Under the pieces are notes generated by a model. It was given only the letters and a program-made list of their open reading frames with translations. It was not told the DNA's origin and ran no database searches. Source: Deltaproteobacteria bacterium (lineage in GTDB: Bacteria; Desulfobacterota; Deferrimicrobia; Deferrimicrobiales; Deferrimicrobiaceae). From it: a stretch of 64,000 nucleotides of DNA. The number at the start of each line of letters is the position of its first letter. Within the stretch, counting starts at the first letter, position 1. The position numbers and the translations under genes are program-made. The stretch lies in assembly GCA_016220005.1 (NCBI GenBank), contig JACRIV010000027.1, positions 11,151 through 75,150 of the forward strand, given 5' to 3'. Shown piece by piece: positions 12,873-62,011 of the stretch.

Positions 12873-13471
12873 CCCTCCATTTCGCGGGAGGGGTAGGAGA
12901 AGTATTCGTGGGTCTGGATGTTGGCCCAGAACTCCTCGAGGTCCTTCGTGAGGACGAGGAGGTCGTGCCGGACCCCGATCTGGTCGCGCACGTGCCCGCG
13001 GAAGGTGGCCTCCTGCTTGAACCCCAGCTTCTCGAAGACCTTCTTTGCCCCCTGCTGGGTCTCCATCATCTCCGCCACGATCTTTTCCAGGCCGGACTTG
13101 AGGGCGTGAAGGAACAGCTCGTTGGCCAGGATGCTACCCAGCCCCTTCCGCTGGTAATCCGGAGCGATCACGATCCGGATGGTGCCGACGTGCTTCATCC
13201 ATCCGCCGAGGTTCTTGTGCAGCGTGGCGTCGGCCACCACCTCCTGCCCCTTCCATGCCAGCAGGGGGTAAACCCGCTCGTAATTCAGCTCGGTTGCCCA
13301 GCGCTCCACGATCGCGGGGTCGGTGACGTTGTCCTTGAGGAACAACCGGTCGGACTCGGGGAGCCGGGCGAAAAACGCGAAGAGGGCGTCCTTGTCCTTC
13401 TTCTCGAAGGGGCGCAGGACCACCGTGCTCCCGTCCTTGACCTTGACCTCTTTCGGGTATTCCTGAGCCAT
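12869..13471 (-). CDS. GNAT family N-acetyltransferase
   Basis: Real start is MAQEYPKEVKVKDG (ATG 13471), preceded by AAAGGAGGG. GNAT motif ...IRIVIAPDYQRKGLGSILANELFLHALKSGLEKI. The ORF-track N-terminal extension was rejected. Confidence 0.75.
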   Translation of the reverse strand: MAQEYPKEVKVKDGSTVVLRPFEKKDKDALFAFFARLPESDRLFLKDNVTDPAIVERWATELNYERVYPLLAWKGQEVVADATLHKNLGGWMKHVGTIRIVIAPDYQRKGLGSILANELFLHALKSGLEKIVAEMMETQQGAKKVFEKLGFKQEATFRGHVRDQIGVRHDLLVLTKDLEEFWANIQTHEYFSYPSREMEG

Positions 13472-13602
13472 CTCGCGGGCCCTCCTTTCGTGCTGTCGCC
13501 ACGGGCACCGATAAATTGGCGGCCTGCCACTATCATATTGCGAATCCCCCCGCTTTTCCTTATAAAAAGACGAATGCTTCAATACGAGGGGCGGGAGGAT
13601 CC

Positions 13603-14391
13603 ATGGGAGGGAGGGTCATCGTCACAAGGGAAGGGAAGGTGGCGACCGTCACCATCTCGAACCCCGCGAAGAAAAACGCGCTCAACCTGAAGCTCCTCGG
13701 CGAGATCGGCCGGGCCTTCGGCGAGTTGGCGGGCGAGGATGTCCGTTGCGTGGTCCTGCGGGGGGAAGGCGAGGAGGCGTTCTGCGCCGGGTACGACATC
13801 ACGGCGATCCCCGCGGGAGGGTCCGGAGAGGCGCAGGTCCTCCTGTCGTCGAACCCCTTCGACGACATGATCCGGGCGGTGGAGTCGTTCCCCGCACCGG
13901 TGATCGGGATGCTGAACGGCTTCGCGTTCGGGGGCGGGCTCGAGCTGGCCGTGGCCTGCGACATCCGGATCGCCTCCGACCAGGCGGTCTTCGGGATGAC
14001 CCCGGCGCGCCTGGGGATCATCTACCGGCCCGCGGGGCTCATGCGGTTCGTCAACGTGATCGGGCTTCCCGCCACGAAGGAGCTCTTCTACACGGCCCGG
14101 AAGGTCAGCGCCCGCCGGGCCGAAGGCCTCAAGCTGGTAAACCGGGTGTGCCCGCCCGAGGAGCTCGAGCAGGTGACCCGTGAAATGGCCCGGGAGATCG
14201 TGGACAACGCGCCGCTCTCCATCCGCGGCACCAAGCGGATTCTTTCCCTGAGCATGGAGTTCCGCGGCCTGCCGCCCGGGGAGGCGAAGGAGGCGGAAGA
14301 TCTCATCCGCCAGTGCATGGAGAGCAAAGACCTGATCGAGGGAAAAAAAGCGTTCCTGGAAAAACGGAGGCCCAAATTCCAGGGGAAGTAG
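13603..14391 (+). CDS. Enoyl-CoA hydratase/isomerase family protein
   Basis: Starts MGGRVIVTREGKVATVTISNPAKKNALN... (ATG 13603, preceded by GGGAGGA). Crotonase motif CAGYDI...NGFAFGGGLELAVACDIRIAS. Confidence 0.8.
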   Translation: MGGRVIVTREGKVATVTISNPAKKNALNLKLLGEIGRAFGELAGEDVRCVVLRGEGEEAFCAGYDITAIPAGGSGEAQVLLSSNPFDDMIRAVESFPAPVIGMLNGFAFGGGLELAVACDIRIASDQAVFGMTPARLGIIYRPAGLMRFVNVIGLPATKELFYTARKVSARRAEGLKLVNRVCPPEELEQVTREMAREIVDNAPLSIRGTKRILSLSMEFRGLPPGEAKEAEDLIRQCMESKDLIEGKKAFLEKRRPKFQGK

Positions 14392-14414
14392 GGGAAAACG
14401 GGCAGTAGAAGAAA

Positions 14415-14441
14415 AGCCCCGCCTCGATCCGAGGCGGGGCT
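14415..14441. terminator. Intrinsic-terminator-like hairpin between convergent genes
   Basis: agccccgcctc-gatcc-gaggcggggct: an 11-bp GC-rich stem with a 5-nt loop and A/T-rich flanks. It lies between the 3' ends of the enoyl-CoA hydratase gene (+) and the OmcB-like gene (-), so it could terminate both. Confidence 0.5.
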
Positions 14442-14476
14442 CTCGTGTCCGGTTTCCTCAGGACTGAGCCGAGGGG

Positions 14477-16420
14477 TCAGTATCGATCGCCTGCGTCCCC
14501 GTTTTGCGCTTGGAGAAGGTAGCTGATCGCGCTGGCTTTGTAAGTCGTTGCACCGTCGAGAGCGTTCAACGTCGCCGAGACGGAGTAGTTCAGCACGCCG
14601 TCGTCGAGCCAGTCGATGGAGTCGTAGATCAATCGCCGGGTGTAGCGACGGTTGTGGGCGACCCCGCCGGGATCGTGGAGGAGGAGGTTGTAATTGAAGG
14701 CGGCGCCCATGTTGGTTTTCCCGGTATTATCGCCAGCCGTGTCGGTATCCCCAGGAGAGAGCCAGTTCTTGACGGCGTTCGCGGAGGCATTGTTATCCGC
14801 GCTCTTGAAGAAGTACGGATAGGAGTTGATGAAGTAGAACCCCTTGCCGGCCAACTGGACCTTCAGCGCCTCCAGGGCCGCCTGGTAGCGGGCCTTGTGC
14901 GTCGTTCCCTGCAAGGTGGCCGCCGTGGCATCGTCCCCCAGCCAGAGGATCCCGGCGTTGGACCCTTGCCCGCGCGTCGGGTGACAGTTGATGCACACCG
15001 GGTTCAGGACCAGGTCGTTGTCCGCGTACCGTGTGAGCGGACTCAGGGTGTGGGACAGCGTGTTGTCCGAGTAACGCGTCAGGGGGCTCAAACGGTTCGG
15101 ATCCCTGCTGTCGAAGTGGCAACTGACGCACGGGCCGTTTTTGTAATTGGTGTCGACGACCGCATTCCCCGTCGTCCCCAGGCCGATCTTGTCGTGCAGG
15201 TCGGCGGAGGGGATCGAGTAGTCGCGCGATGCGTACTCATATCCGGTGACCGCGAAGACCGTACCCCCGGCCGTCAGGTAGTGGGAGTTGATGAACGAAA
15301 GGTTGTTGAAGGGCCCCGCGGAAGCCTTGACGCTGTCGCCGCTCTCCCGGCCTGTATGACAGGAGAGACAGATGTTGGATGCTTTCGAATCCGGGAATGT
15401 CGGCTCCGGCGAAACCCCGGTATAGGAGGCGGTGATCGCCCCCGGGTTCCGCAGCCCCCCGTAGTAGTTCGTGTGGCACCCGTAGCAGTAGAGCATTTCG
15501 GAGGAGTTGTCGGTCGTCACGTCCGACGTCCACGAAAAGACGTTGTTCGCGGAGTTGTATGTCGAAGGGCTGGTCAGATAGTTGATAACCCCCGTCGTTG
15601 TGTGGCACCGCTGGCAGCTTGCCCGGTTCGATTGCTTCCAGTCGTAATGCTTCCACCCCTCGCCGGCGAAGTCGCCGTGAGCGGAGGAGGCCCACTGGCG
15701 GTTGAGTGCGAGGCTCAACGTGTGGGGATTGTGGCAGTCGACGCAAGCGGTGACCGCCGCCTTCCGGATCACGTACCCCTGGATGTCGCTTCCCACGGCG
15801 CGGCTCGCGTTGTCGGAGTGGGTATCGACGATCCTTCGATAATCCTCCGAGTGGTTCGGGCTGCTCACCTCGTGGCACCCCGTGCAGGTGTTGTACTGCG
15901 AGGACTGGCCGGTCGTCGCAGCCACCGCGAAGATGCCGAGGGTCGGCCCTCCGATCGGCCCGACGCCGAAGTGGAGGCTCCCGCCGCCGTGGCACGCCTC
16001 GCACCCGACGACGTTCCGCTCGGTGTTGGCGAGCGGATCCGTGCTCGTGCTCAAGTAAAACGGCAGGTTTACGTTGTCGCCGTTCGGGTTGTGGCAGGGG
16101 ATGCAGCTTGCGGATGTGCTGGTCGTCCGGAATCCGTGGTAATTCGTCGTCCCTAAAGCGTTGTCCCAGGCATCGAACGAGTTGTCCAGGTTCGCGTGGC
16201 GGCTCGCCTCCCACGCGGCGAAGATCCCCACGCCCCCGACCGCCGTGGCGGCATGGCAGTTGTGGCACTTGTCGATGCCTACCGCGGTGGCGCCCGCCAG
16301 CACGGTACCGCCGCCGCTCACCTCCAGGGAGGTGCTCTTTTCGGACCCCCAGCACCCGGCCAGCAGCGCCGCCAGCGCGAGGGCGATCAGCAGGAACGTT
16401 CCCCTATGATGCCTTTTCAT
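14477..16420 (-). CDS. Outer-membrane lipoprotein multiheme cytochrome c (10 CxxCH), OmcB/OmcC-like cytochrome of a Pcc porin-cytochrome conduit
   Basis: Signal peptide with lipobox LLAGC. Ten CxxCH motifs (CHNCH, CIPCH, CEACH, CTGCH, CVDCH, CQRCH, CYGCH, CLSCH, CVSCH, CINCH); 647 aa, Thr/Ser/Asn-rich. RBS AAAGGAGG. It is the last gene of a porin / periplasmic cytochrome / lipoprotein cytochrome trio, as in Geobacter ombB-omaB-omcB. Confidence 0.8.
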   Translation of the reverse strand: MKRHHRGTFLLIALALAALLAGCWGSEKSTSLEVSGGGTVLAGATAVGIDKCHNCHAATAVGGVGIFAAWEASRHANLDNSFDAWDNALGTTNYHGFRTTSTSASCIPCHNPNGDNVNLPFYLSTSTDPLANTERNVVGCEACHGGGSLHFGVGPIGGPTLGIFAVAATTGQSSQYNTCTGCHEVSSPNHSEDYRRIVDTHSDNASRAVGSDIQGYVIRKAAVTACVDCHNPHTLSLALNRQWASSAHGDFAGEGWKHYDWKQSNRASCQRCHTTTGVINYLTSPSTYNSANNVFSWTSDVTTDNSSEMLYCYGCHTNYYGGLRNPGAITASYTGVSPEPTFPDSKASNICLSCHTGRESGDSVKASAGPFNNLSFINSHYLTAGGTVFAVTGYEYASRDYSIPSADLHDKIGLGTTGNAVVDTNYKNGPCVSCHFDSRDPNRLSPLTRYSDNTLSHTLSPLTRYADNDLVLNPVCINCHPTRGQGSNAGILWLGDDATAATLQGTTHKARYQAALEALKVQLAGKGFYFINSYPYFFKSADNNASANAVKNWLSPGDTDTAGDNTGKTNMGAAFNYNLLLHDPGGVAHNRRYTRRLIYDSIDWLDDGVLNYSVSATLNALDGATTYKASAISYLLQAQNGDAGDRY

Positions 16421-16439
16421 ATCGTGACGCCTCCTTTCC

Positions 16440-17201
16440 TTAATGGCATTTCACGCAGGTGCGTTGACCTGCCGCCCGGTTGAGCTTGTCCTTGATCGAC
16501 CCCCAGTTGTCGGGATGGGGGTTGACGCGCAGGCCCGTCTTGGCGCTGTGGCATTTCAGGCAGATATCTCCGTCGGCGTGGCAGGCCTGGCATGTGGGGA
16601 GATTGCGCCTCGCCTCCTGGGCATGGGAGCTCGACCACTGATGTGCGGGAAGCACCGAGTTCGGGTGGCAGGTCTGGCAGGAGTCGGGGGGGAAGGTGGA
16701 GTGCTTCGGCCCCCCGGGCGTGGCCGACAGGTCCGACCATCCCTTCCGGTGCGACTGAAACTGCAGGTCCTCCGGCCGGAACCGGTTGTGGCATTCCGAG
16801 CAGAAGGAGGCCTTGTGACAGCGCGTGCAGGAATTGGGGTTGTCGAACACGAAGAGGGGGTGGACCTCCTGGAAGGACGTCCGGTGGCTCTTGGGCTTGT
16901 AGTTCGGCCCCCGGTCGGTGGAGGTGTGGAGGTCCCGGTCGATCCCCCCGCCGTAATGGCAGTCCTGGCAGAACGACTGATCGTGGCAGGTGGCGCAATT
17001 AGCGTCGGCCTTGACCGCGAGGAGCCGATGATCGGCGTTCCATCCCGCCCGGTGGGTGGGGGGGACGTTGGAGTCCCGGTGGCACTCGGTGCACTCGGGG
17101 ATCTTCATGTCCTTGTAAGGGCGATGGTCCTCGGCCGCGTAGAGCAGCGACGCTCCGGCTCCAAGGGAAGCAACGAGGATGAGCAAGAGGGCTCTTTTCA
17201 C
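16440..17201 (-). CDS. Periplasmic multiheme cytochrome c (8–9 CxxCH), OmaB-like
   Basis: 253 aa with a signal peptide. CxxCH motifs: CTECH, CATCH, CQDCH, CTRCH, CSECH, CQTCH, CQACH, CLKCH, and CVKCH at the extreme C-terminus. GTG start preceded by TTTTAAGGAGGGG. It sits between the porin-like and lipoprotein-cytochrome genes. Confidence 0.8.
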   Translation of the reverse strand: MKRALLLILVASLGAGASLLYAAEDHRPYKDMKIPECTECHRDSNVPPTHRAGWNADHRLLAVKADANCATCHDQSFCQDCHYGGGIDRDLHTSTDRGPNYKPKSHRTSFQEVHPLFVFDNPNSCTRCHKASFCSECHNRFRPEDLQFQSHRKGWSDLSATPGGPKHSTFPPDSCQTCHPNSVLPAHQWSSSHAQEARRNLPTCQACHADGDICLKCHSAKTGLRVNPHPDNWGSIKDKLNRAAGQRTCVKCH

Positions 17202-17213
17202 GTCGTCCCCTCC

Positions 17214-18425
17214 TTAAAAGTCGACGTTCAGGGCCAGACGCGCCCTGATGTCTTTGCTGAATCGCTGGCTGACGGTGTCCTCCACCCTGGCCTGGACGGA
17301 GAGGTTCTTGCGCACCTTCGCTTCGCCGCCGATCCAGAACCTGGTGGCCGAATCGTAGCTGTTCGAAAGCTCGCGCCGGAAACTGTCGTGCTGCACCCCG
17401 GCCGCGAGGATGTACTTCTGCAGGACCACCTTGTCCCCGGAGAGCTCGAACCCGGCGAGGTTGCCCCCCGTGCCGACCCGCCAGATGCCCGCGCCGTAGA
17501 GGGACATGCCGTCCGCGGGGCGGTACCGCACGCCGAGCTCCCCGACGTTGGCGGTGTCCCCCCCGCCGAAGCTCTCGTTCCGGTATTCCCCGTTCAGGCT
17601 TATCCGCTTGCCGAGATCGTACTGCGCCCGGAGCAGGATCTCCTGGAACCTTTCCACGGCGAACACCGCGAAGATGGAGGAGGCGTCGAAGACCGGGACG
17701 GTCCGGAAGAACTCCGCGTTGAACGTCCATTTGGGGAGGATGGCGGTCCGGGCGCCGAACTGGATCTCGCTCCAGACCTCGGAGAGGAGGTCGAACCGGA
17801 GCTGGGTGTACAGCTCGCCGTACTTGTCGAACCGCTTGCTGGCGGCGAGTCCCAGCCCCTCCCGCGCGAGGTCGTTCTCGTCGTACGAGACGAAGTACGA
17901 CAGGTCCAGAGAGCCCTGGGGGATATTGGTCAGGCTCGCCTGAACCGCCGCGGCGATGTCCCCGCTCCTTGTCTCCTCTCCCGTGACGTCGAACTTCACG
18001 TGGCGGCCGCCCACCGCCGTGATGGCGAGAGGGCCGAACGGCCGTGAATCGACGCGGGCGCCGTCGACGATCGCCGACCCGGCGCTGACGAAGAAGAACT
18101 GCCGCCCCACCCGGACGTCGGTCTGCCCCGGCAATCCCTTCTTGTCCAGGTAGAGGTAGTACAGTCTCCCTTCCACCCCGCCCCCCTGCTGCACGTCCCC
18201 CCAGGCGCGGCCGTATCCGCTGACCTGGACGGTGTTCGCCGCGTCGAAGTTCCGGGCGTGGAACCGGGCGTACTGGGCGAGGTCGAAGTGGTCGGCCCCG
18301 AACTCATCCGAGAACCAGAGCGCCTGCGTGGAGGCTCTTCCGCTCAGCGCGGCCGCCCGAGCGGTGGGGACCCCGACGCCGAGGATGAGCAGTGCGACGA
18401 GCAAAAAGCGGGTGCACCTTTTCAT
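17214..18425 (-). CDS. Outer-membrane beta-barrel porin-like protein of a porin-cytochrome complex (OmbB-like)
   Basis: Starts MKRCTRFLLVALLILGVGVPTARAAA (signal peptide; ATG 18425 preceded by AGGGGG). ~400 aa with alternating hydrophobic beta-strand-like segments and a C-terminal ...ALNVDF (terminal Phe typical of OMPs). First gene of the trio. Confidence 0.65.
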   Translation of the reverse strand: MKRCTRFLLVALLILGVGVPTARAAALSGRASTQALWFSDEFGADHFDLAQYARFHARNFDAANTVQVSGYGRAWGDVQQGGGVEGRLYYLYLDKKGLPGQTDVRVGRQFFFVSAGSAIVDGARVDSRPFGPLAITAVGGRHVKFDVTGEETRSGDIAAAVQASLTNIPQGSLDLSYFVSYDENDLAREGLGLAASKRFDKYGELYTQLRFDLLSEVWSEIQFGARTAILPKWTFNAEFFRTVPVFDASSIFAVFAVERFQEILLRAQYDLGKRISLNGEYRNESFGGGDTANVGELGVRYRPADGMSLYGAGIWRVGTGGNLAGFELSGDKVVLQKYILAAGVQHDSFRRELSNSYDSATRFWIGGEAKVRKNLSVQARVEDTVSQRFSKDIRARLALNVDF

Positions 18426-18883
18426 TGCTCGGACCCCCTGTTTTTCTTGCATGGCTCACGTCGCAAAATCCGTATGTCGGACACGTGCTGGCCGAGTCTG
18501 CGCGTGCAGTCGGTGTCATCGGAAGGAAAGTCGCCAAACTTTAACGTTAATTTTTGAAAAATTATTTTGCAGGCGGGAAGAGAAGGAAGGAGCGCACATA
18601 ACCGGCAGAAATACAACCGTCACCGAAATCCTCACCGAGGCATGGTGCAACGATTAAAGCGAGGTTTCTACGCAATTGCAATGTATACAGTATGCGGTAC
18701 GCAGTCTCCGCATTTATCGGCAGGGGTGTGGCGGAACTTTAAGCAAAAGTTTCCGCCAACGATAAGGTGGACATCTGTGCCGTTACCGAATTGTATACCG
18801 CATTCGCCCCGGGGGGGTCAACAGAATGTTTTTCAATAAGACGCTTGGTGCCGAGCGGGCAAGGGTTAGATGTATGGAAAAGA

Positions 18884-18915
18884 GCCGGGGCCCCTAAGGG
18901 GAAAGGGGCCCCGGC
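18884..18915 (-). terminator. Rho-independent terminator downstream of the MtrB-like gene
   Basis: Perfect 12-bp stem gccggggcccct / aggggccccggc with an 8-nt loop. On the minus strand it is followed by CUCUUUUCC. It lies 35 nt downstream of the mtrB-like TAA stop and before the AT-richer Pcc promoter region. Confidence 0.6.
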
Positions 18916-18949
18916 GCCACGGACGGGATCAACAGAGGACCCGGGTCCT

Positions 18950-21394
18950 TTAGAACTTGTACACCATGTAGAGCTGACCGACGTGGGCCTCGTACTGCTT
19001 GTAGGTCGCGTCGGCGAAGACGAACCGGGTGGAGTTTTCGGCCGACAGCCCCGCCATGTAGGCATTCAGGTTGTCCCAGGCGAAGTCGTCGAGCTTGTAC
19101 CATTCGAACAGGTAGCTGACCCCCACCGTCAGATTGGCTAAGCATTTGTAGGCCAGATTGGCCTTGATCTCGTGCAGCCGGTTCACCACCGTCGGCCACG
19201 GCTGGGCGACGGCGTTGGCGAGTTTCGCGCCGTCGGTGAAGCCGTTGGCGATCGCCAGGTCCCTGTTCGGATTGAAGGTATTGAAGTCTATCTTGCTGTA
19301 GGACAGGTTGTAGCTCGTATTGAGCGTCAGCTTCGCCGGCATGATCTGGACCGTCGCCCCCACGCCGACGGTGTCCGCCTTCTCGGTGACGTTCGTATTC
19401 CAGTAGTTGAGGGGATTGAAGTTGCCGAAGAGCACCGCTTCGTTGTCCGCCGTGCTGCCGATGTCGAACGCGTCGTCCTTGGCCCCGTTCCTCATCTCGC
19501 TCTTCCGGTACTCCTTGACGTAGTTGGCGAAGAGGGTGAGCCTGTCGGAGGGGTTGTAGGCGACCTCGAACCCGCCGTCGACGTTCTCCGACTTCTTGAG
19601 CCCGAACCGGCTGTCTTCGGCGAACTTGTCGTTCAGGTACTGGGCGAAGAGGGCCACCGTTATGGCCTGCGTCGGGTCGAACTGGAACTTTGCGTCGGCC
19701 ACGTTCCGCTTCCGGTCCGCCCAGTCGTAGTTGACAAGACCTGTCGCCTCGGGATTCGCGGCCGTCTCGCCGGGCTTGTAGCCGTCGACGTTCCTCTTGG
19801 CGTATTTATAGCTCGCCTTCAGACTGCCCGTCTTGAACAGCTTGTAGGTGACGCCGCCCCGGATGCTGTACTCATCCGTCCCGTCGATGCGCAGCTTCTC
19901 CCGGTCCCAGCCTTCCCAGCCGGCCTCGAGAAGGAGAGTCAGGGACTTCGCGACGTGGTAATCGAGGCCGAGCTCGACGTTCCGCCGGGTGAAGCCGAGG
20001 GGTTCGTTCATTACGGGCGCGTTCTTGTCGTTCCTGACCGTTCTCCAGTTGGACTCTCCGAACGCCGCGTAGCCGGGGAACAGGATTTCGTCGGATTTGT
20101 TGTCATAGTCGTAGTAGCGGTACTTGAGCGCCACCTTGAGCGGCGTGACCGGCTTGAAGGCGAGGACGAAGCTCCCCGTCAGGTTCTTCACCTTGCCGTC
20201 CAGGTTGCTCTTGGGAAGGATCGAGGGGTCCGTGATGTTGGCCGGGCCGCCGTCGTCTCCCGCGAGGGCCGAGTTCCGGGTATAGGGGACGAAGGGGTCG
20301 TCCTGGGTGATCCAGCCGTACCCGAGGGTGGCCGAGAACCGGCCGTGCATCGGAAGGTCGGTGGCGGCCGAAAGGGTGAAGTCGTGGGCATCGCTGTCGG
20401 GGACGAGGGAGAGCTGGCCGTTCGCGAAGCGGCCCCGGTTGAACCCGTTCCCCACGATATTGTCGGTTGCGCCGGTCGCCGGGGCGTCGGTGATCCGGAA
20501 GGGGTTGTCCCAGATCAGGGCCAGGTTGTTGTTCTTGAATTTCGTGAAGCTGTACTCGAGGTCGGCCAGCCAGCTCTTCTTGTAGACGCCGGCGCCGGCC
20601 GAAAGGGTCGTGGTGCGGAAGTCGATCGGCTCCGCCAGGTCGGCGCCGCTCACCATGAAGAGGTCGGAGGTGTGCCCGAGCCCGCTTGGGCCCTGTGCGA
20701 ACCGCTCGTAAGTGCCGGCGGTGATCACCCTGGCGCCGGTCCGCTTCTCGTTGGTGACCTTCGCGAAGACCTTTATGTCGCCGGTCACGTTATAGGCGAA
20801 CGAGAAGCCCGCCTTCTCACGCTTCAGCCGGAACGTGATCGGGTCGGCCTCCGCGTACAGTCCCCTCACGATCGCCTGGGCCTGCGCGTCCTCCCCCGTT
20901 GTGTCGACGAGCGGGTTGCCCCCTCGTTCGCCCCGGGTCTGCTCCACCGATTGAAGGCTGTTCTGCACGTTGTCGGCGATGAAGAGCCGGTTGGTGCCTG
21001 CCCCGTTGAACAGCAGGACGCCGTTGCTGAAGTTGTGGGGGATGCTGTCATAGAAGATGTTGTACTTGTAGCTGCCGTGCTTTCCGCCCGTCAGGCTGTA
21101 GAACTCGTTCTCCTGCACCGGGTTCTTGATCTTGACGTCGATGAAGTAGCGCGTGGCGTCCTGATCGAACCGAATTGCGGCGTCGTTTACTAGGAAGCCG
21201 TTCTTGACGTCCCGGTACTCCTCGAACTTCTCGCTCCCGCCGTTGACGTTCTTCTGCTGGACCCCGACGTCGACCAGGCCGCTGGCGGTGCCGCCCGCGG
21301 CCTTGGCGTCCGTCTCCGCCCCGACCGTGCCCGTGAAAAAAATGAGCGGCAGGAGCAAGGCCGCCGCCGTGTAACCGAACCGTTTATGAATCAT
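18950..21394 (-). CDS. MtrB/PioB family decaheme-associated outer-membrane beta-barrel protein
   Basis: ~814 aa. Starts MIHKRFGYTAAALLLPLIFFTGTVGAETDA (ATG 21394 preceded by GGAGGAA). Long Asn/Tyr/Gly-rich beta-barrel sequence ending ...GQLYMVYKF. It is immediately downstream of the MtrA-like decaheme gene, the canonical mtrAB/pioAB/mtoAB arrangement. Confidence 0.75.
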   Translation of the reverse strand: MIHKRFGYTAAALLLPLIFFTGTVGAETDAKAAGGTASGLVDVGVQQKNVNGGSEKFEEYRDVKNGFLVNDAAIRFDQDATRYFIDVKIKNPVQENEFYSLTGGKHGSYKYNIFYDSIPHNFSNGVLLFNGAGTNRLFIADNVQNSLQSVEQTRGERGGNPLVDTTGEDAQAQAIVRGLYAEADPITFRLKREKAGFSFAYNVTGDIKVFAKVTNEKRTGARVITAGTYERFAQGPSGLGHTSDLFMVSGADLAEPIDFRTTTLSAGAGVYKKSWLADLEYSFTKFKNNNLALIWDNPFRITDAPATGATDNIVGNGFNRGRFANGQLSLVPDSDAHDFTLSAATDLPMHGRFSATLGYGWITQDDPFVPYTRNSALAGDDGGPANITDPSILPKSNLDGKVKNLTGSFVLAFKPVTPLKVALKYRYYDYDNKSDEILFPGYAAFGESNWRTVRNDKNAPVMNEPLGFTRRNVELGLDYHVAKSLTLLLEAGWEGWDREKLRIDGTDEYSIRGGVTYKLFKTGSLKASYKYAKRNVDGYKPGETAANPEATGLVNYDWADRKRNVADAKFQFDPTQAITVALFAQYLNDKFAEDSRFGLKKSENVDGGFEVAYNPSDRLTLFANYVKEYRKSEMRNGAKDDAFDIGSTADNEAVLFGNFNPLNYWNTNVTEKADTVGVGATVQIMPAKLTLNTSYNLSYSKIDFNTFNPNRDLAIANGFTDGAKLANAVAQPWPTVVNRLHEIKANLAYKCLANLTVGVSYLFEWYKLDDFAWDNLNAYMAGLSAENSTRFVFADATYKQYEAHVGQLYMVYKF

Positions 21395-21433
21395 CTGCCG
21401 TTCCTCCATGGAAGGTGTATTCGTCATTCCCTG

Positions 21434-22333
21434 TTAACGCTGCAGGACCGGCCCGGACGGGTTATTGGACCCGTGGACCATCGGGTGGCAGTTCAGGCAG
21501 GACCGGTTGAAGGCGAAGGCGGAGTTCGTGGCGAGTGTTCCCGACTGGTGCCGCCCCTGCATGTGGCACGACTGGCAGAGGCGCGGCACTTTCGCGACCA
21601 GCATCTTGTCGTAGGAAGAACCGTGCGGGGCGTGGCAGGTCAGGCAGTCTTCCTTGACCGGCGAGTGCTCCCAGAGGACCGGGGCCCGTTTCTCGGCGTG
21701 GCACTCGTAGCACTTGTCGTTGAAGGACTTGGCGCTGATCAGTTTTTCGCTCCGGGCGCCGTGGGGATTGTGGCAGGCGGAGCAGCCCATCTTGCCCTCG
21801 CCCGTCGGGGACGAGGAGTCCCGCATCGGGTGCTTGGAACGCTTCAGCATGGAGGCGCGCACCTCGGCGTGGCAGGCGAAGCAGACCTCTTTCTCGTCGG
21901 CCTTGGCGAGGAGCTTGGCCTTGTTGCCGTGGATCTTGTGACAGGTGGCGCAGCCCACTTCCCGGCTGTCATGGACGCTGCCCTTCCAGAACATCTGCCC
22001 CTTGTCCTTGCCGTGGCAGGCGCGGCACGCGGCCGCGGCCGCTTCCGCGCCGATCTTCGCCGGGTTCGAGATCTTGGCCGTGTCGCCCGACTCCACGTGG
22101 GCGCCCGCCGGCCCGTGGCAGGATTCGCATCCGGCGTTCTTCGCCCCGTAATAGGCGGCCTTGGCGTGAATGTTGGCGCGGAAAGACCCGACGAGGTCCT
22201 CGTGGCACTCCTTACACTTGTCGCTGCCGACATAGCCGACGTCGGCGGGGGAAATCCCCGCGTACGCCAGCAGCAGGCAGCCGGCAAGGACCGCAGGCAG
22301 GAAAAGCCGTTTGAGTGTTGCCGTTTCGTTCAT
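21434..22333 (-). CDS. MtrA/DmsE/PioA family periplasmic decaheme cytochrome c
   Basis: Starts MNETATLKRLFLPAVLAGCLLLAYAG (ATG 22333 preceded by AAAGGAGGG). Exactly ten CxxCH motifs: CKECH, CESCH, CRACH, CATCH, CFACH, CSACH, CYECH, CLTCH, CQSCH, CLNCH. ~300 aa, the right size for the MtrA family. Confidence 0.85.
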   Translation of the reverse strand: MNETATLKRLFLPAVLAGCLLLAYAGISPADVGYVGSDKCKECHEDLVGSFRANIHAKAAYYGAKNAGCESCHGPAGAHVESGDTAKISNPAKIGAEAAAAACRACHGKDKGQMFWKGSVHDSREVGCATCHKIHGNKAKLLAKADEKEVCFACHAEVRASMLKRSKHPMRDSSSPTGEGKMGCSACHNPHGARSEKLISAKSFNDKCYECHAEKRAPVLWEHSPVKEDCLTCHAPHGSSYDKMLVAKVPRLCQSCHMQGRHQSGTLATNSAFAFNRSCLNCHPMVHGSNNPSGPVLQR

Positions 22334-22461
22334 CAATCCAACCCTCCTTTTCATGGGCGTGTCGTTTGCCGACACTTGCGGATTATCCGGAAGCATCTGT
22401 TAACGGTGGGCGCTTTGTCGGCGGAGAATAGTGTCCATGGCATATGAAAGAATAAAGTTTC

Positions 22462-22476
22462 GCAAGTCCCGTGCCG
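22462..22476 (-). promoter_or_regulatory. Putative sigma-54 (-24/-12) promoter upstream of the mtrAB-like operon
   Basis: The minus strand reads cGGCACG-ggac-TTGCg, matching the consensus TGGCACG-N4-TTGC. It sits ~130 nt upstream of the MtrA-like start and just downstream of a sigma-54-dependent NtrC-type regulator gene. Confidence 0.5.
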
Positions 22477-22580
22477 GCAAGTCGCTTGCGAAGGGCCTTT
22501 TAGTTCGTTCAGTTTTTCAGTTGGTTAGAGGGGTCCGGATGAAGCGGATTCGAGCGGGAGACGAGAGCGCCCCGTCATGT

Positions 22581-22621
22581 GTTTCCCGGGAGAAACATCG
22601 GCGTTCTTATGTTTCGAAACG
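22581..22621. promoter_or_regulatory. Two GTTTC-N-GAAAC dyads, a candidate enhancer (UAS) for the sigma-54 activator
   Basis: gtttcccgggagaaac (22581-22596) and gtttcgaaac (22611-22620), 105–150 nt upstream of the -24/-12 element. This is the usual distance for an NtrC-family enhancer-binding-protein site. Confidence 0.3.
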
Positions 22622-22656
22622 GAAACGGAACTGGAGCGGCTCCTGCGGGAATCGCC

Positions 22657-24009
22657 TTATCTCTTCAGGCGCTCCCAAAGCGCCTTCCGGCCGATCCCGA
22701 GAAGGCCGGAGGCGCGGGTCCTGCTTCCGCCGACGGCCTGCAGGGCCCGTTGGATGTAATCCGTCTCGAAGCGCTTGACCGCATCTCTCAAGGGGAGGAT
22801 CTCCCCCGGGGCGGGAATGTTCCCGGAGAGCCTCTTCTCCGCGCCCGGGAACTCGGGAGGAAGGTGTTCCGGCCCGATCGTCCCTTCCCGGCAGAGGATG
22901 GACGCCCGCTCCATGACGTTCCACAGCTCGCGCACGTTGCCCGGGAACCGGTGGTCCATGAGCAGCGCCATGGCCTTGTCCGAGACCCGGCAGGCGCCCC
23001 CAAGCTTCTCGAGGAAGTGCTCGACCAGAAGAGGCATGTCCTCCCGCCGCTCCCGCAAGGGAGGCAGCCGGATGGCGAACACGTCCAGGCGGTAGAAGAG
23101 GTCCTCCCGGAAGGTCCCTTCCTCGACCATGGCCTTGAGGTCTTCCCGGTTCGTCGCCGAGACGACGCGGATGTCGACGTGGACGCTCTCGCCGCCGCCG
23201 ATCCTCGCGAAGGAGCGCTCCTGGAGCACCCGCAGGAGCTTCGCCTGGGCGGAGGGAGGCATCTCGGCGATCTCGTCCAGGAAGAGGGTGCCGCCGTGGG
23301 CCTGCTCGATCCTGCCCGTCCGGCGGCGGTCCGCCCCGGTGAACGCCCCCTTCTCGTACCCGAAGAGCTCCGCCTCGAAGAGGCTTTCGGGGATGGCGGT
23401 GCAGTTCAGGGCGACGAAGGGGCCGTCCCTTCTTTTTCCCCTCCGGTGGAGCGCCCGGGCGACCAGCTCCTTGCCGGTCCCGCTTTCGCCGAGGACGAGC
23501 ACGGTGGCGTCCGTCTCGGCCACAAGTGAGATGAGATCGAAGACATCCTGCATCGCCTTGCTCTTGCCGACCAGCTCCTCGAAAAGGGACCGGGAGACGA
23601 TGCGCCGCTTCAGGTCCCGGTTCTCCTCCTCCAGGGACCGGACGCGGAGGACCTTCGCAAGCAGCAGAAGGAACTCGTCCCTCGAGAAGGGCTTCGTCAG
23701 GTAGTCCTCCGCGCCGAGCTTCATCGCCTCCACCGCCGATTCGATGCTGCCGTACCCGGTCATGGTGATCACCGAGGGAGGGGGAAATTTCGTCCTTGCC
23801 TCCCGCAGGACTTCCAGGCCGTCCCTGCCGGGGAGCCTGAGGTCGGTCAGCACCACGTCGAACGGTTCCGACCCGAGCAACCGGATCGCCTCCGCGCCGT
23901 TGTCCGCGCCGCGGACGGCGAATCCCGCGTCCTCCAGGGTGTCCGTCATCGTGAAGCGGAGCCCGGGGTCGTCCTCGACGATAAGGATGCGCTTCCCGCT
24001 AGCGTCCAT
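22657..24009 (-). CDS. Sigma-54-dependent two-component response regulator (NtrC family)
   Basis: Starts MDASGKRILIVEDDPGL...DVVLTDLRLPGRDG (receiver domain). AAA+ sigma-54 interaction domain with GESGTGKE and GAFTGA. C-terminal HTH ...RTRASGLLGIGRKALWERLKR. ATG 24009. Confidence 0.85.
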   Translation of the reverse strand: MDASGKRILIVEDDPGLRFTMTDTLEDAGFAVRGADNGAEAIRLLGSEPFDVVLTDLRLPGRDGLEVLREARTKFPPPSVITMTGYGSIESAVEAMKLGAEDYLTKPFSRDEFLLLLAKVLRVRSLEEENRDLKRRIVSRSLFEELVGKSKAMQDVFDLISLVAETDATVLVLGESGTGKELVARALHRRGKRRDGPFVALNCTAIPESLFEAELFGYEKGAFTGADRRRTGRIEQAHGGTLFLDEIAEMPPSAQAKLLRVLQERSFARIGGGESVHVDIRVVSATNREDLKAMVEEGTFREDLFYRLDVFAIRLPPLRERREDMPLLVEHFLEKLGGACRVSDKAMALLMDHRFPGNVRELWNVMERASILCREGTIGPEHLPPEFPGAEKRLSGNIPAPGEILPLRDAVKRFETDYIQRALQAVGGSRTRASGLLGIGRKALWERLKR

Positions 24010-25516
24010 GGGTCCCTTCCATAAGAAGAGGTCGCGGCAGGGTAATGAAAAATTTCGCCCCTTCGCCCGGACGGGACGACACCGAGATCTTCCCGTCATG
24101 CTGTTCGACGATTTTCCTGCAGACCGCGAGGCCGAGGCCGGTCCCCTTTCCGTTTCCCTTCGTGGTGAAGAACGGCTCGAAGATCCGGCCGTGGTTCTCT
24201 TCCGGGATCCCCTCCCCCGTGTCGGCGATGATCAGGGTCAGGCTGGAGCCGTCTTCGGCGTGGCTGAATTCCAGCCGGCCGCCGGAAGGCATGGCCGCGA
24301 TGGCGTTCATCACGATGTTGACGAGGACCTGCTCCAGCTTGTGGGCGTCCCCGCGGACGGCCAGGGGGGGAAGGCGGTTTTCGACTTCGATCCCGCTCCT
24401 GCCGATCTGGTAATGCAGAAGCTCCAGGGTGTCGGCGACGAGGCGGGAGAGGTCGCACTCGGAAAAGTTCGTCGCATGGACGGTGGAGTAGTCGAGGAGC
24501 TGGGAGACCGCCCGGCGGATCCTTTCGAGGCTCTCCCCGGCCACCTTCAGGTACCGGTCCCGCTTCCGGGGGGGCAGGGACTCCTTCGCCAGCGCCCCGA
24601 TGCTGTGCATCGCGCCGGTCAAGGGGCTGTTGATCTCATGGGCGATCCCCGCCGCCAGGGTCCCGATCGTCGCCATCTTCTCCGTCCTCGCCAGAAGCTC
24701 CCGGGTCTTCACCCGCTCGATCTCCTCCTTCCTCAGCCGGTCCACCATGATCCGGTAGCTGTCCTGGAGGTCGCCGAGCTCGTCGTTCCGTTCCGGGAGA
24801 GGCATGGGTTCGAGCCTCCCCAGGTGAACGGAATTGAGGGCGTTCACCAGCCGGCGGATCGGCCTCGCCATGACCCGGGCGGCGACGAAGAGGAAGAAGA
24901 TCATGAGGGCCGCCGCGGAAATCGTGAGGACGAGGACCTTCCTTTTCAGCCCGCGGATCTCTTCGGCCAGCCCCGAAAGGGAATAGCCCAGGCGAAGGGT
25001 GCCGAACCGCTTGGAGGAGACGTTCAGCGGGGTCGCCACGTCGATCACCCCGCCCTCGAACGGATCCCCCACGGAGGAGAGGATCATCCCCGTCGCGGCC
25101 AGCGCCTTCCTGGACAAGGGATCGTCGAGCCGCTTGTGGAACTGCGTCAGGTCGCTGTGGGACAGGACGTGTCCCTCGGGATCGAGGACCATGGCATAGG
25201 AGACGTGCATATCTCTGTTGCCCGCCATGCGGGAAATGTAAAGGTCCAGAAGGCCCGACTCCGCCACCAGGCCGGTCTCTTCGTAGAGCAGGATCTGCGT
25301 GAAAGGGAGCTTCATCGAGGCGGCCAGGGTCCGCGCCGCCTGCTCCTTCCTTTGAAGGAGGTGGCGCTTCTCCGCGTCGACGAGGAAGAAATGGAGGGCC
25401 AAGGCGATGACGAGGGTCGCAGCGGCCCCCACGGCCATGAACTTTCCCGCGAGGGAGGAAAAGGGGCGCCTTATTTTTCCAAAAAGGGGTTCGAGGCGTG
25501 ACAACGGATGCCGCAT
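23999..25516 (-). CDS. Sensor histidine kinase (HAMP-HisKA-HATPase)
   Basis: N-terminal TM helix, periplasmic region, then a second TM segment and HAMP. H-box AHEINSPLT; N/G boxes ...VMNAIAAMP...DTGEGIP...GTGLGLAV. Overlaps the response-regulator start by 11 nt. Exact start uncertain (M1 at 25516 or M27 at 25438). Confidence 0.8.
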   Translation of the reverse strand: MRHPLSRLEPLFGKIRRPFSSLAGKFMAVGAAATLVIALALHFFLVDAEKRHLLQRKEQAARTLAASMKLPFTQILLYEETGLVAESGLLDLYISRMAGNRDMHVSYAMVLDPEGHVLSHSDLTQFHKRLDDPLSRKALAATGMILSSVGDPFEGGVIDVATPLNVSSKRFGTLRLGYSLSGLAEEIRGLKRKVLVLTISAAALMIFFLFVAARVMARPIRRLVNALNSVHLGRLEPMPLPERNDELGDLQDSYRIMVDRLRKEEIERVKTRELLARTEKMATIGTLAAGIAHEINSPLTGAMHSIGALAKESLPPRKRDRYLKVAGESLERIRRAVSQLLDYSTVHATNFSECDLSRLVADTLELLHYQIGRSGIEVENRLPPLAVRGDAHKLEQVLVNIVMNAIAAMPSGGRLEFSHAEDGSSLTLIIADTGEGIPEENHGRIFEPFFTTKGNGKGTGLGLAVCRKIVEQHDGKISVSSRPGEGAKFFITLPRPLLMEGTHGR

Positions 25517-26409
25517 CCCTTGGGAATGGAGATGATTTTATTGTAAAGAAAATCGTAGTCCTCGTCGCGGGCGCGCACGAACCCGTGCCGGAGCTCCGGC
25601 CCCAGGTCCGCGAGCGCTGCCCGGCCCTCCGGGTTGTTCCCGTTGATCGACAGAAGGGCCTTCGTCAGCGCCCTCTCCGCATCCTCGGGGAGGGTGGGTC
25701 CCGCGGCGATCGGCGCATTGGGGAGCTCTTCCGACATGGCGATGATCCGCAGCCCCTGCCGCTGGTACTTCCAGGCGACCACGTCCTTGACGGCGCCGAC
25801 CTCGTAGATCCCCTTGAGGACCGCCCTGGCGACCTCTTCATGGTTGTGGAGATTCCGTACGTCCTTGAGCTGGCAGGGAGTCACGCCGGCGCCGGCGAGC
25901 ATGTAGCGGGGGATCAGGCTCCCCGTGGTGGAGCGCCTGGCGCCGAAGGCCACGGTCTTCCCCTTGATGTCGGCGATGGTCCTGATCGGACTGTCATTGC
26001 GGACGATGAAGCAGCACCGGTAGGTCGGTCTCCCCTGGGCGTTCAGCGGCTTGACGAGGGCGCGGGCCCCGAAGCGGTGCCTTGCGAGGGTGTAGGTCGC
26101 CCCGCCCAGGTAGGCGACGCCGGTGACCCCCTTCTCCAGGTCCGCGATCGCCTCCTTGTAGGTCCGGCCGAGGCGGAGCTCGAAACGATAAGGGGTCGTC
26201 CGGCTGAGATAATCCATGAGCGGCTGGTAATATTCGTACATGACGTGGGGGTTGAAGCGTGGGATGACCCCGAATAAGATAGTCCTCTTCCCCGAATTAT
26301 CCGCAGGGACCGCCAAGGCGGGCAAGAGGAGAAGAAAAACGACAAGAATAATTTCTGACAGACCCAAACGGGCCGGGATCGGTTGCTTTTTTCCGGATCG
26401 GTACCCCAT
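25471..26409 (-). CDS. PhnD/SsuA-like periplasmic substrate-binding protein (phosphonate-ABC-type fold), probably a sensory partner of the downstream kinase
   Basis: Signal peptide/TM ...EIILVVFLLLLPALAVPA. The body ...ILFGVIPRFNPHVMYEYYQPLMDYL...AYLGGATYTLARHRFGARALV...TGSLIPRYMLAGAG is PhnD-like. No ABC permease or ATPase genes follow; a histidine kinase and an NtrC regulator do. Confidence 0.7.
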   Translation of the reverse strand: MGYRSGKKQPIPARLGLSEIILVVFLLLLPALAVPADNSGKRTILFGVIPRFNPHVMYEYYQPLMDYLSRTTPYRFELRLGRTYKEAIADLEKGVTGVAYLGGATYTLARHRFGARALVKPLNAQGRPTYRCCFIVRNDSPIRTIADIKGKTVAFGARRSTTGSLIPRYMLAGAGVTPCQLKDVRNLHNHEEVARAVLKGIYEVGAVKDVVAWKYQRQGLRIIAMSEELPNAPIAAGPTLPEDAERALTKALLSINGNNPEGRAALADLGPELRHGFVRARDEDYDFLYNKIISIPKGCGIRCHASNPFLEK

Positions 26410-26591
26410 GCTTTTCGCCCCGGAATAGTATACCCGCGTCGGGGGCGGGAGACGGAATTTATCGATTCCGGGAAAGATTGATTTTAATGCCCGGTTTGCG
26501 TATCATGATGCCGTTTTCCACATGAAGACTGCCGACAGTATCCGCAACGCAATGCCTGCACATTTCGCCCGTCAAGGGAAGGAGGAGACAC

Positions 26592-28547
26592 GTGGGTAGG
26601 AATATCGTTCAGAAGATCATCGATGCGCATTACGTGTCCGGGGACAAGAAGCCCGGCAAGGAAGTGGCCGTCCGGATCGACCAGACTCTCACCCAGGACG
26701 CGACCGGAACGATGGCGTACCTGCAGTTCGAGGCGATGGGCGTGCCCCGGGTGAAGACCGAAATATCGGTTTCCTACGTCGACCACAACACCCTCCAGGA
26801 GGGGTTCGAGAACGCCGACGACCACCTGTACCTCCAGACGGTCGCCGCCAAGCACGGGATCTTTTATTCCCGGGCGGGGAACGGGATCTGCCACCAGGTC
26901 CACCTGGAGCGTTTCGGCGCCCCCGGGAAGACGCTGCTGGGTTCCGACTCCCACACGCCGACCGGCGGCGGGATCGGGATGATGGCGATCGGGGCGGGCG
27001 GCCTGGACGTGGCGGTGGCGATGGCGGGCGGCCCGTTCTACATGACCTGTCCGAAGGTGATCAAGGTGAACCTCACGGGGCAGCTCCAGCCCTGGGTGGC
27101 GGCCAAGGACGTGATCCTGAAGCTCCTGGAGATCCTCACCACCAAGGGGAACGTGGGGTGCATCGTCGAATACGGCGGGGAGGGGGTCATGACCCTTTCC
27201 GTCCCCGAGCGCGCCACCATCACCAACATGGGCGCGGAGCTCGGCGTGACCACCTCGATCTTCCCGTCCGACAAGGTGACCAAGGCGTTCCTGAAAGCCC
27301 AGGGCCGGGAGGACAAGTGGGTCAAGCTCGCCGCCGACCCGTCCGCCAAGTACGACCGGGTGATCGACATCGACCTGTCCGAACTGGAGCCGATGGTCGC
27401 ACAGCCCCACAGCCCGGACAACGTCGCCCGGATCCGGGACATCAAGGGGAAGAAGGTCCACCAGGTGCTCGTCGGCTCGTGCACGAACGCTTCCTACAAG
27501 GACATCACCACCTTGGCGAAGATCCTCGACGGCCGGCTGATCAGCCCGAACGTCTCGTTCGGCGTCGCCCCCGGCTCGCGCCAGGTGCTCCAGATGGCGG
27601 CGAAGGAGAGCAGCATCGCCACCCTCGTCGGATCGGGCGCGAGGATACTGGAGACCGCATGCGGGTTCTGCATCGGGGCGGGGCAGGCGCCCCCCTCCGG
27701 CGGGGTCTCCGTGCGGACCAACAACCGGAACTTCGAGGGCCGGTCGGGGACGAAGGACGCCGGGATCTTCCTGGTTTCCGTCGAGACCGCCGCAGCGTGT
27801 GCCCTGAAGGGGGAGCTCGCCGACCCCCGGGAAGTGGCCGCCGAGATGGGGATCGAATACCCGGCCGTCAAGGTGCCCAAGAAGTTCCTCGTGGACGACT
27901 CGATGGTCCTGCTCCCCGCGGAGGACCCCTCCGGGGTGGAGGTGCGCCGCGGGCCGAACATCGGGAAGCCCCCGGAGAGCGTCCCCCTGCCGGAGACGAT
28001 CAAGGGCGAAGTCTCCCTGAAGGTGGGCGACAAGATCACGACCGACCACATCATGCCCGCCGGAGCCCGGCTGAAGTACCGGTCCAACATCGGCAAGTAC
28101 GCCGAGTACGTCTTCGAGGGGGTCGACGCCGCCTTCAGCAAGCGGGCGCTGGAAAACAAGGCCAGGGGGGTCCACAATGTGGTGGTGGGCGGGCTCTCCT
28201 ACGGACAGGGCTCCTCGCGGGAGCATGCGGCGATCTGCCCGAGCCACCTCGGGGTACGGGCGGTCATCACCAAGTCGTTCGAGCGGATCCATTCCGCCAA
28301 CCTGATCAACTTCGGGATCGTGCCGCTCCTGTTCGCCGACGATTCCGACTACGACCGGATCGCCCAGGGTGACCAGGTCGAGATCCCGAACGTCCGGGAA
28401 GCGATCCGGAAAGGGTCCTCGCTCAAGGCGAGAAACGTGACCAAGGGGTTCGACTTCGAGGTCCGGCACACCCTTACCGGCCGCCAGATCGACATCATCC
28501 TGGCCGGCGGGCGGCTGGCCTACACGAAGGAGAAGGGGTCGTTCTGA
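26592..28547 (+). CDS. acn: Aconitate hydratase (monomeric ~650-aa type)
   Basis: 651 aa. Fe-S ligand region ...SDSHTPTGGGIGMMAIGAGGLDVA...VGSCTNASYKD...CGFCIGAG, and a C-terminal swivel domain ...SSREHAAICPSHLGVRAVITKSFERIHSANLINFGIVPL. GTG start preceded by GAAGGAGGAGA. Confidence 0.9.
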   Translation: MGRNIVQKIIDAHYVSGDKKPGKEVAVRIDQTLTQDATGTMAYLQFEAMGVPRVKTEISVSYVDHNTLQEGFENADDHLYLQTVAAKHGIFYSRAGNGICHQVHLERFGAPGKTLLGSDSHTPTGGGIGMMAIGAGGLDVAVAMAGGPFYMTCPKVIKVNLTGQLQPWVAAKDVILKLLEILTTKGNVGCIVEYGGEGVMTLSVPERATITNMGAELGVTTSIFPSDKVTKAFLKAQGREDKWVKLAADPSAKYDRVIDIDLSELEPMVAQPHSPDNVARIRDIKGKKVHQVLVGSCTNASYKDITTLAKILDGRLISPNVSFGVAPGSRQVLQMAAKESSIATLVGSGARILETACGFCIGAGQAPPSGGVSVRTNNRNFEGRSGTKDAGIFLVSVETAAACALKGELADPREVAAEMGIEYPAVKVPKKFLVDDSMVLLPAEDPSGVEVRRGPNIGKPPESVPLPETIKGEVSLKVGDKITTDHIMPAGARLKYRSNIGKYAEYVFEGVDAAFSKRALENKARGVHNVVVGGLSYGQGSSREHAAICPSHLGVRAVITKSFERIHSANLINFGIVPLLFADDSDYDRIAQGDQVEIPNVREAIRKGSSLKARNVTKGFDFEVRHTLTGRQIDIILAGGRLAYTKEKGSF

Positions 28548-28724: not shown

Positions 28725-28748
28725 GGTGTAACGTTCCCTCCCGCGCTG

Positions 28749-62005: not shown

Positions 62006-62011
62006 CAAACT

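Follow-up and report, generated by a model that had tools for sequence, protein, structure and literature searches.

The window analysed here is a stretch of 64,000 nucleotides (nt) from contig JACRIV010000027.1 (76.6 kb; assembly GCA_016220005.1) of a metagenome-assembled 'Deltaproteobacteria bacterium' of the Deferrimicrobiaceae. Its positions 14477 to 26409 hold eight open reading frames (ORFs), all on the minus strand, coding for a periplasmic binding protein (PBP) plus a histidine kinase and a sigma-54-dependent response regulator, followed by an MtrA/MtrB-type conduit and then by a porin-cytochrome (Pcc) conduit of the type found in Geobacter sulfurreducens. These genes probably make up two independent extracellular-electron-transfer modules that are neighbours in this lineage. 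The PBP-kinase-sigma-54 triad belongs to the mtrAB cassette, and a common regulon for both conduits is not supported.

All eight ORFs lie at the coordinates claimed for them in an earlier interpretation made from the letters of the DNA alone (the sequence-only reading), as do the other elements that it described: the gene order, the heme counts (10, 9 and 10 CxxCH motifs), the sigma-54 promoter, the terminator hairpin and the spacer of low GC content. Six of the eight translations are identical to NCBI gene calls (MBI5418936-41, locus tags HZA60_025xx). The longest-ORF translations of the PBP and the kinase are not in the protein collection that was searched, and the start positions of these two genes are therefore uncertain. 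Overall, 56 loci were compared, and L numbers are used below where individual loci must be told apart. The eight genes, in 5' to 3' order along the minus strand, are as follows:

25471..26409, minus strand: PhnD/PtxB/AioX-family periplasmic binding protein (sensor 'X') with a signal peptide (PF12974, E=4.6e-66); start codon uncertain
23999..25516, minus strand: membrane histidine kinase (sensor 'S') with periplasmic sCache_3_2, HAMP, HisKA and HATPase domains (Pfam); start uncertain
22657..24009, minus strand: NtrC/AtoC-type sigma-54-dependent response regulator ('R'), 450 amino acids (aa), with Response_reg, Sigma54_activat and HTH_8 domains; identical to MBI5418941.1
21434..22333, minus strand: MtrA/DmsE-family periplasmic decaheme cytochrome, 299 aa, 10 CxxCH (TIGR03508; 6R2Q chain A)
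18950..21394, minus strand: MtrB/PioB-family outer-membrane barrel, 814 aa (TIGR03509, PF11854; AlphaFold2 and Foldseek)
17214..18425, minus strand: OmbB-type Pcc porin, 403 aa (alignment to G. sulfurreducens OmbB)
16440..17201, minus strand: OmaB-type periplasmic cytochrome, 253 aa, 9 CxxCH (alignment to OmaB)
14477..16420, minus strand: OmcB-type outer-membrane lipoprotein cytochrome, 647 aa, 10 CxxCH, with an LAGC lipobox and a heme-free C-terminal domain (alignment to OmcB)

The MtrAB and Pcc conduits

The 299-aa cytochrome passes the cut-off of the curated DmsE/MtrA decaheme profile (TIGR03508, 248.7 bits versus 192.2) and matches chain A of the Shewanella Mtr complex (PDB 6R2Q) with E=2.8e-64. 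The start codon of the 814-aa protein follows the mtrA stop codon after a gap of 39 nt. In the curated profile search this second protein scores 282.6 bits with TIGR03509 (cut-off 240.05), and it aligns to positions 6-635 of the 635 in PF11854 (E=2e-132). An AlphaFold2 model of the barrel, with a predicted local distance difference test score (pLDDT) of 80 and a predicted template-modelling (TM) score of 0.73, was searched against solved structures using Foldseek. The best match is 6R2Q_B, the solved MtrB (E=1e-38, TM 0.86, root-mean-square deviation 4.2 A), and the second match is 27 orders of magnitude weaker (E=2.7e-11). The solved MtrB structure has 26 strands. Because 6R2Q_B is so clearly the top match, the concern raised in the sequence-only reading that the 814-aa protein might not be a beta-barrel can be set aside, and the assignment of these two genes to the MtrAB/PioAB type is upheld both by the profile cut-offs and by the match of the predicted barrel to solved MtrB.

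The MtrA signal peptide is of the signal peptidase I type. An LAGC sequence within it was considered as a lipoprotein signal and rejected, as the Cys is not conserved and AxA-type cleavage sites are found in all homologues. No match to the OmcA/MtrC family was obtained among the proteins of the cluster by profile search, and the only other multiheme genes of the window are those of a CbcL-like set at 56924-62971. The absence of an MtrC-type partner noted in the sequence-only reading is borne out, there being no MtrC/OmcA-type gene in the window. Judged by profile and predicted fold, the 299-aa decaheme and the 814-aa protein are an MtrA/MtrB-type pair without an MtrC surface partner.

Like MtrCAB of Shewanella (PDB 6R2Q), the window has a decaheme MtrA and an MtrB barrel encoded by neighbouring genes in the order A then B. 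It differs in lacking the MtrC/OmcA surface decaheme, in having a barrel approximately 120 residues longer than the solved one, and in the association of mtrAB with a dedicated sensor triad and predicted sigma-54-dependent transcription. The PioAB and MtoAB conduits of Fe(II) oxidation also consist of an MtrA/MtrB pair with the MtrC partner missing; the window pair, however, has no adjacent PioC, MtoD or CymA-type genes, and its nearest named relatives come from iron reducers.

The porin of the second conduit has no Pfam family and is labelled hypothetical at NCBI; some of its distant relatives carry names such as Candidatus Deferrimicrobiaceae. Porin homologues were traced to named Geobacteraceae, and OmcB/OmcC of G. 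sulfurreducens were located by name (L051). The layout of this locus is the published one: TetR, a porin of 403 aa, a cytochrome of 236 aa and OmcB/OmcC, in tandem duplicate. All three window proteins align to their G. sulfurreducens counterparts. The porin is 34% identical to OmbB across 403 of 403 residues (E=3e-84), the 9-heme cytochrome is 42% identical to OmaB (E=2e-65), and the 647-aa lipoprotein is 32% identical to OmcB from end to end (E=6e-97), the two having in common an LAGC lipobox and a C-terminal domain free of hemes. The eight heme motifs of OmaB are all aligned in the 253-aa cytochrome, whose extra motif falls within an insertion. The lipoprotein has nine of its ten hemes in register with OmcB, and OmcB hemes 2 and 3 are absent from it.

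The AlphaFold2 model of the porin (pLDDT 87) has 22 strands, and its only Foldseek matches in the PDB are generic large outer-membrane barrels. Pcc porins have 18-22 trans-membrane strands, and Pcc periplasmic multiheme cytochromes carry 5-14 hemes (PMC4245776). An OmaB-like gene adjoins the porin gene in nearly all related loci (44 of 46, from Geobacteraceae, Desulfuromonadales, Nitrospirota and Denitrovibrio); a metagenome scan with the porin sequence alone returned 6 loci. One locus, L050, is without the third (OmcB-like) gene.

The porin, the 9-heme cytochrome and the lipoprotein are a genuine Pcc cluster. The match to ombB-omaB-omcB in order and content that had been proposed is confirmed by three full-length homologues in the G. 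sulfurreducens gene order, and porin length (403 aa) is the same in both organisms. The window cluster differs from that of G. sulfurreducens in the heme content of its periplasmic cytochrome (9 versus 8) and lipoprotein (10 versus 12), in being single-copy rather than a tandem duplicate, and in lacking the TetR-family OrfR/OrfS: the window has no such gene in the interval from mtrB to the porin gene, whereas L051 does have TetR genes. With both family assignments passing direct tests, the proposal of two non-homologous porin-cytochrome conduits in tandem stands.

The CbcL-like set is a second cytochrome cluster, on the plus strand (56924-62971). It encodes a CbcL-like protein in which an 11-heme cytochrome is joined to a membrane domain of the cytochrome b561 type, another 11-heme cytochrome, two further b561-type proteins and an approximately 9-heme cytochrome. 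The set is a candidate for the inner-membrane step of quinol oxidation, from which the outer-membrane conduits could be fed.

The sensor cassette and the mtrA promoter

The order PBP, kinase, regulator, MtrA, MtrB is collinear in three further loci: L053, from another metagenome-assembled genome, L052, from Geotalea uraniireducens Rf4, and L055, from Citrifermentans bremense. Identities to the Rf4 proteins are 41, 34, 45, 71 and 53%, respectively. Among the Geobacteraceae (G. uraniireducens Rf4, C. bremense and Geobacter sp. M21), MtrB is 47-53% and MtrA 63-71% identical to the window proteins. The Rf4 and C. bremense cassettes comprise the same five genes and a binding protein with the same terminal CX3CH motif. 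They differ from the window in having no GTTTC-N6-GAAAC sites found upstream of mtrA and no Pcc cluster next to the cassette, where a transposase gene is present in Rf4 and a radical-SAM gene in C. bremense. A Pcc cluster adjoins the cassette in none of the three loci, L053 included.

Other arrangements of these genes were also observed. In Rf4, the DDE transposase gene after the cassette is followed approximately 5 kb further on by a Y1 transposase gene (12837-14123 and 17397-18347 of L052), which hints at mobility of the cassette. In L053 (12717-17802), mtrB is followed by a gene for a 435-aa multiheme cytochrome and by a second, paralogous PBP-kinase-sigma-54 regulator triad. A single contig, L054, holds two divergent mtrAB pairs; neither has a PBP triad, and one has an ordinary two-component system in its place. 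In L056 (labelled Elusimicrobia), mtrB is followed by an mtrA-like gene and by genes for a 645-aa protein without a Pfam family and a cytochrome b-fused multiheme protein; the sequence before mtrB is missing from this locus.

The PBP-kinase-sigma-54 triad with its promoter, as described in the sequence-only reading, is real and conserved. Within it, the kinase gene overlaps both of its neighbours, the PBP gene and the regulator gene, one at each end, and the best NCBIfam model for the regulator is AtoC. The solved relatives of the binding protein in the PDB are PtxB, ArrX and AioX, with ArrX and AioX being distant (E=3e-14 to 2e-11). In the AioXSR system, a PhnD/PtxB-family protein signals to a kinase and the kinase to an AtoC-type regulator acting at an RpoN promoter (PMC5908839). 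The window triad resembles AioXSR and ArxXSR in all three components (a PhnD/PtxB-family PBP, a membrane histidine kinase and an AtoC/NtrC-type sigma-54 regulator) and, at the sequence level only, in the upstream regulator site and RpoN promoter at the adjacent respiratory operon (PMC5908839). Unlike those systems, its target would be mtrAB and not an arsenic enzyme; it is not an Aio, Arx or Arr orthologue, and its PBP has a C-terminal CX3CH tail outside all alignments to solved relatives. No description of a PBP-kinase-sigma-54 triad beside MtrB/PioB was found in the literature searched. The short elements of the cassette are as follows:

25501..25518, minus strand: CGIRCH (CX3CH) motif in the C-terminal tail of the binding protein, past the PBP fold
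22611..22626, no strand assigned: inverted repeat GTTTC-N6-GAAAC, copy 1, candidate regulator site
22581..22596, no strand assigned: inverted repeat GTTTC-N6-GAAAC, copy 2, candidate regulator site; its start is 120 bp upstream of the -24/-12 element
22462..22476, minus strand: sigma-54 type -24/-12 element CGGCACGGGACTTGC, 142 nt before the mtrA start

An exact GTTTC-N6-GAAAC is found only twice in the 64-kb window, each time upstream of mtrA. The footprint is shared by the window, L048 and L053: the repeats are exactly 30 bp apart, and from the start of the second repeat it is 120-122 bp downstream to the start of the -24/-12 element. The -24/-12 element itself is intergenic and is conserved in L048 (AGGCACGGGACTTGCT) and L053 (CGGCATGCCGATTGCT); the G. 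uraniireducens counterpart is TGGCACACCTCTTGTT.

The CGIRCH motif of the binding protein is located outside the Pfam domain (46-285) and past all PDB alignments, which end at or before residue 290. Its tail is kept as IPxGCGxxCH in the orthologues linked to mtrAB (L053, G. uraniireducens and C. bremense), and the paralogous binding protein of the second L053 triad is without it. In a search of 1.8 billion proteins, IPxGCGxxCH was present in 22 of the 150 best cluster representatives, mostly among the top matches, and the CX3CH carriers among those representatives include tandem-PBP proteins of approximately 550-570 aa. No description of a CX3CH-bearing PhnD-like protein was found in the literature searched. 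Since covalent heme binding is possible for CX3-4CH motifs, according to work cited in a passage of PMC4245776, a heme- or metal-bearing sensor is a testable idea. We suggest tentatively, as a possibility rather than an expectation, that the tail may attach a c-type heme or bind iron, in which case the triad would be a periplasmic redox or iron sensor, and not an oxyanion sensor, that switches on MtrAB via sigma-54.

Adjacency of the two modules and its explanation

The region between mtrB and the porin gene, and the larger segment to which most of it belongs, contain the following features, listed with the hairpin beyond the last pcc gene:

18884..18915, minus strand: predicted intrinsic-terminator hairpin after mtrB, with a 12-bp stem, 11 G-C pairs and a T-rich tail
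18426..18883, minus strand: low-GC spacer upstream of pcc, with palindromes, a GTATACA block and a conserved leader before the porin start
18467..26465, no strand assigned: 8.0-kb segment (the triad, mtrAB and the larger part of the spacer) that the collinear relative L043 does not have (blastn)
14416..14435, minus strand: terminator-like hairpin 3' of the last pcc gene, with a 6-bp stem and a T-rich tail (a weak pattern match only)

A hairpin resembling the predicted mtrB terminator is also present in L048. The GC content of the spacer is 52.6%, compared to approximately 65% in its surroundings, and it contains three palindromes besides the terminator. These palindromes were considered as regulatory sites and dropped, as they are not conserved in L048, L043 and L049. 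The GTATACA block (18682-18688) is conserved and is a candidate -10 region. Neither a sigma-54 promoter nor GTTTC-N6-GAAAC was found upstream of the porin gene in the 524-bp spacer of the window or in nine relatives. An Rfam scan of positions 12000-29000 gave no match at E up to 1, and the spacer is thus without a known riboswitch or small RNA. Approximately 40 nt before the porin start (18426-18466) are highly conserved, in L043, L048 and L049 as well, and may be an operator or an element of the 5' untranslated region; the leader palindrome CGTGAGTCACG of relatives is degenerate in the window, where it reads CGTGAGCCATG.

Comparison by blastn aligns L043 7428-9660 with window 28702-26466 at 89% identity and L043 9962-12104 with window 18466-16320 at 83%. 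The proteins flanking the 8-kb segment are 84-94% identical between the two loci, and in L043 the aconitase gene directly abuts the pcc cluster. Of the 36 other pcc loci whose upstream sequence extends for at least 3.5 kb, one, L048, has MtrB nearby. On these alignments, the adjacency of MtrAB and Pcc is best explained as the outcome of a cassette-sized insertion or deletion. The only direct repeat at the ends of the segment is a single 10-nt match, CCGGGGCGAA (minus strand, at approximately 26414 and 18803, beside a GTATAC block near both ends); it was not accepted as the mark of a mobile element, with approximately 0.1 such matches expected by chance (rough estimate).

In the window (13516-28547) and L048, the trio and the sensor-mtrAB cassette lie between aconitase and enoyl-CoA hydratase (ECH) genes. 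L045 has the pcc trio inverted between the same flanking genes, and L001 has two tandem pcc trios, with a flank of UvrD/aconitase type on one side and the same ECH/ParA genes on the other. Because its contents differ among L043, L045, L001, the window and L048, the aconitase/enoyl-CoA hydratase interval is best described, at the level of gene content, as a variable island for electron-transfer genes. Elsewhere in the window, at 52492-56301 on the minus strand, is a gene for a 1269-aa ribonucleotide reductase whose barrel domain is split by an intein with an HNH endonuclease domain.

The side-by-side placement of the two conduits had been called unusual in the sequence-only reading, which overstates the case: Mtr and Pcc have been reported together in the genomes of more than 40 Desulfobacterota (PMC12133095). 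G. uraniireducens, for example, has both MtrAB (L052) and pcc clusters (the latter according to PMC4245776). With such co-occurrence already published, the adjacency is a modest novelty. No description of physical MtrAB-Pcc adjacency, or of its occurrence in this lineage, was found in the literature searched, and the genome paper on MBNT15/Deferrimicrobium contains no account of these clusters.

The homologies, folds, motif counts, synteny and insertion or deletion described above would be accommodated by two modules working as follows. In the first (18950-26409), a periplasmic signal would be sensed by the PhnD/AioX-family PBP together with the Cache-domain kinase, which would phosphorylate the NtrC-type regulator. 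The regulator, bound at the two GTTTC-N6-GAAAC sites, would then activate the sigma-54 promoter of mtrA-mtrB, and the product would be a decaheme cytochrome threaded through an MtrB-type barrel with no MtrC cap. The second module (14477-18425) would be a Pcc operon of the ombB-omaB-omcB type with a promoter of its own within the spacer, and its products would be a barrel of 22 strands, a periplasmic cytochrome with 9 hemes and a surface lipoprotein with 10. We consider the modules independent because of the terminator after mtrB, the lack of a sigma-54 promoter or repeat before pcc, the presence of MtrB at only one of the 36 other pcc loci, and the absence of the cassette from L043.

Several observations weigh against this interpretation. 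The terminator after mtrB is itself a prediction from sequence. The window spacer has no convincing sigma-70 promoter, the -35 fitting at 3 of 6 positions. The window also contains six equally good -24/-12 matches, so that the sigma-54 match alone is not statistically exceptional and is weak evidence. Finally, the mtrB-pcc junction is repeated in L048, an independent contig whose porin is 83% identical, and selection for adjacency or read-through may therefore have a part in it.

One alternative is that the locus is one regulon, in which the PBP-kinase-sigma-54 circuit would drive both conduits either by read-through of the mtrB hairpin or from a second regulator-dependent promoter, bringing the two into use jointly. 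The two gene sets are on the same strand and a short distance apart, their junction recurs in L048, and sigma-54 regulators adjoin pcc clusters elsewhere (L013, L015, L036 and L050). Nevertheless, a single regulon is quite unlikely: the G-C-rich terminator has a 12-bp stem, the 524-bp spacer contains neither a -24/-12 element nor GTTTC-N6-GAAAC, the cassette and the pcc trio are apart in nearly all other loci, and the collinear L043 keeps pcc without the cassette. The claim of the sequence-only reading that both conduits stand under one regulator triad is not supported for the same reasons, the triad being part of a five-gene cassette with mtrAB only. As a separate observation, a histidine kinase and/or a sigma-54 regulator lies beside the pcc trio in L013, L015, L033, L036 and L050, and sigma-54 control of Pcc may be common elsewhere.

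Two further alternatives concern what the MtrAB module does. The conduits could be divided by direction, with the cap-less MtrAB importing electrons from Fe(II) or a cathode, like MtoAB and PioAB, and Pcc exporting them, so that the pair would exchange electrons in both directions. Mtr clusters without mtrC are typical of Fe(II) oxidisers (PMC4245776), and the window is without an MtrC-type gene. Such a division is nonetheless unlikely, as the closest named MtrB relatives (47-53% identity) belong to Geobacteraceae that reduce Fe(III), export of electrons and reduction of Fe(III) are also possible with MtrAB alone (PMC4245776), and no Cyc2, MtoD or PioC-like gene is adjacent. The 'bidirectional' electron exchange suggested in the sequence-only reading is likewise unsupported, the direction of flow not being readable from sequence. 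It is very improbable that the PBP is instead a transport component and that MtrAB serves solute or metal uptake. That reading has been proposed for Geobacterales MtrA/MtrB operons with 'ABC transporter substrate-binding protein' genes (PMC11492766), and the window protein does belong to an ATP-binding cassette (ABC)-type phosphonate-binding family; however, the sensors AioX and ArrX are members of the same family (PMC5908839), and no permease or ATPase genes were found near the binding protein in the window or in the cassette across four genomes. The absence of these genes, together with the overlap of the PBP gene with the kinase gene, argues for sensing rather than transport.

Both conduit families are well described, and in that respect the window mainly extends them to an uncultured 'Deltaproteobacteria' lineage. 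How bacteria choose among outer-membrane conduits is poorly understood, and here a full candidate circuit for mtrAB, from sensor to promoter, is legible in the DNA. The conserved AioXSR-like sensor has been studied least, and its cassette is the part of the locus deserving of follow-up: the sensor-mtrAB circuit is also found in culturable Geobacteraceae that are open to genetic work, and the heme-like motif provides a concrete hypothesis on the signal sensed. If that hypothesis is true, the triad would respond to the periplasmic electron pool and its state, or to whether an extracellular acceptor is available, and the five genes would represent an unrecognised, widespread regulatory cassette for extracellular electron transfer, common to the lineage of the window and cultured Geobacteraceae.

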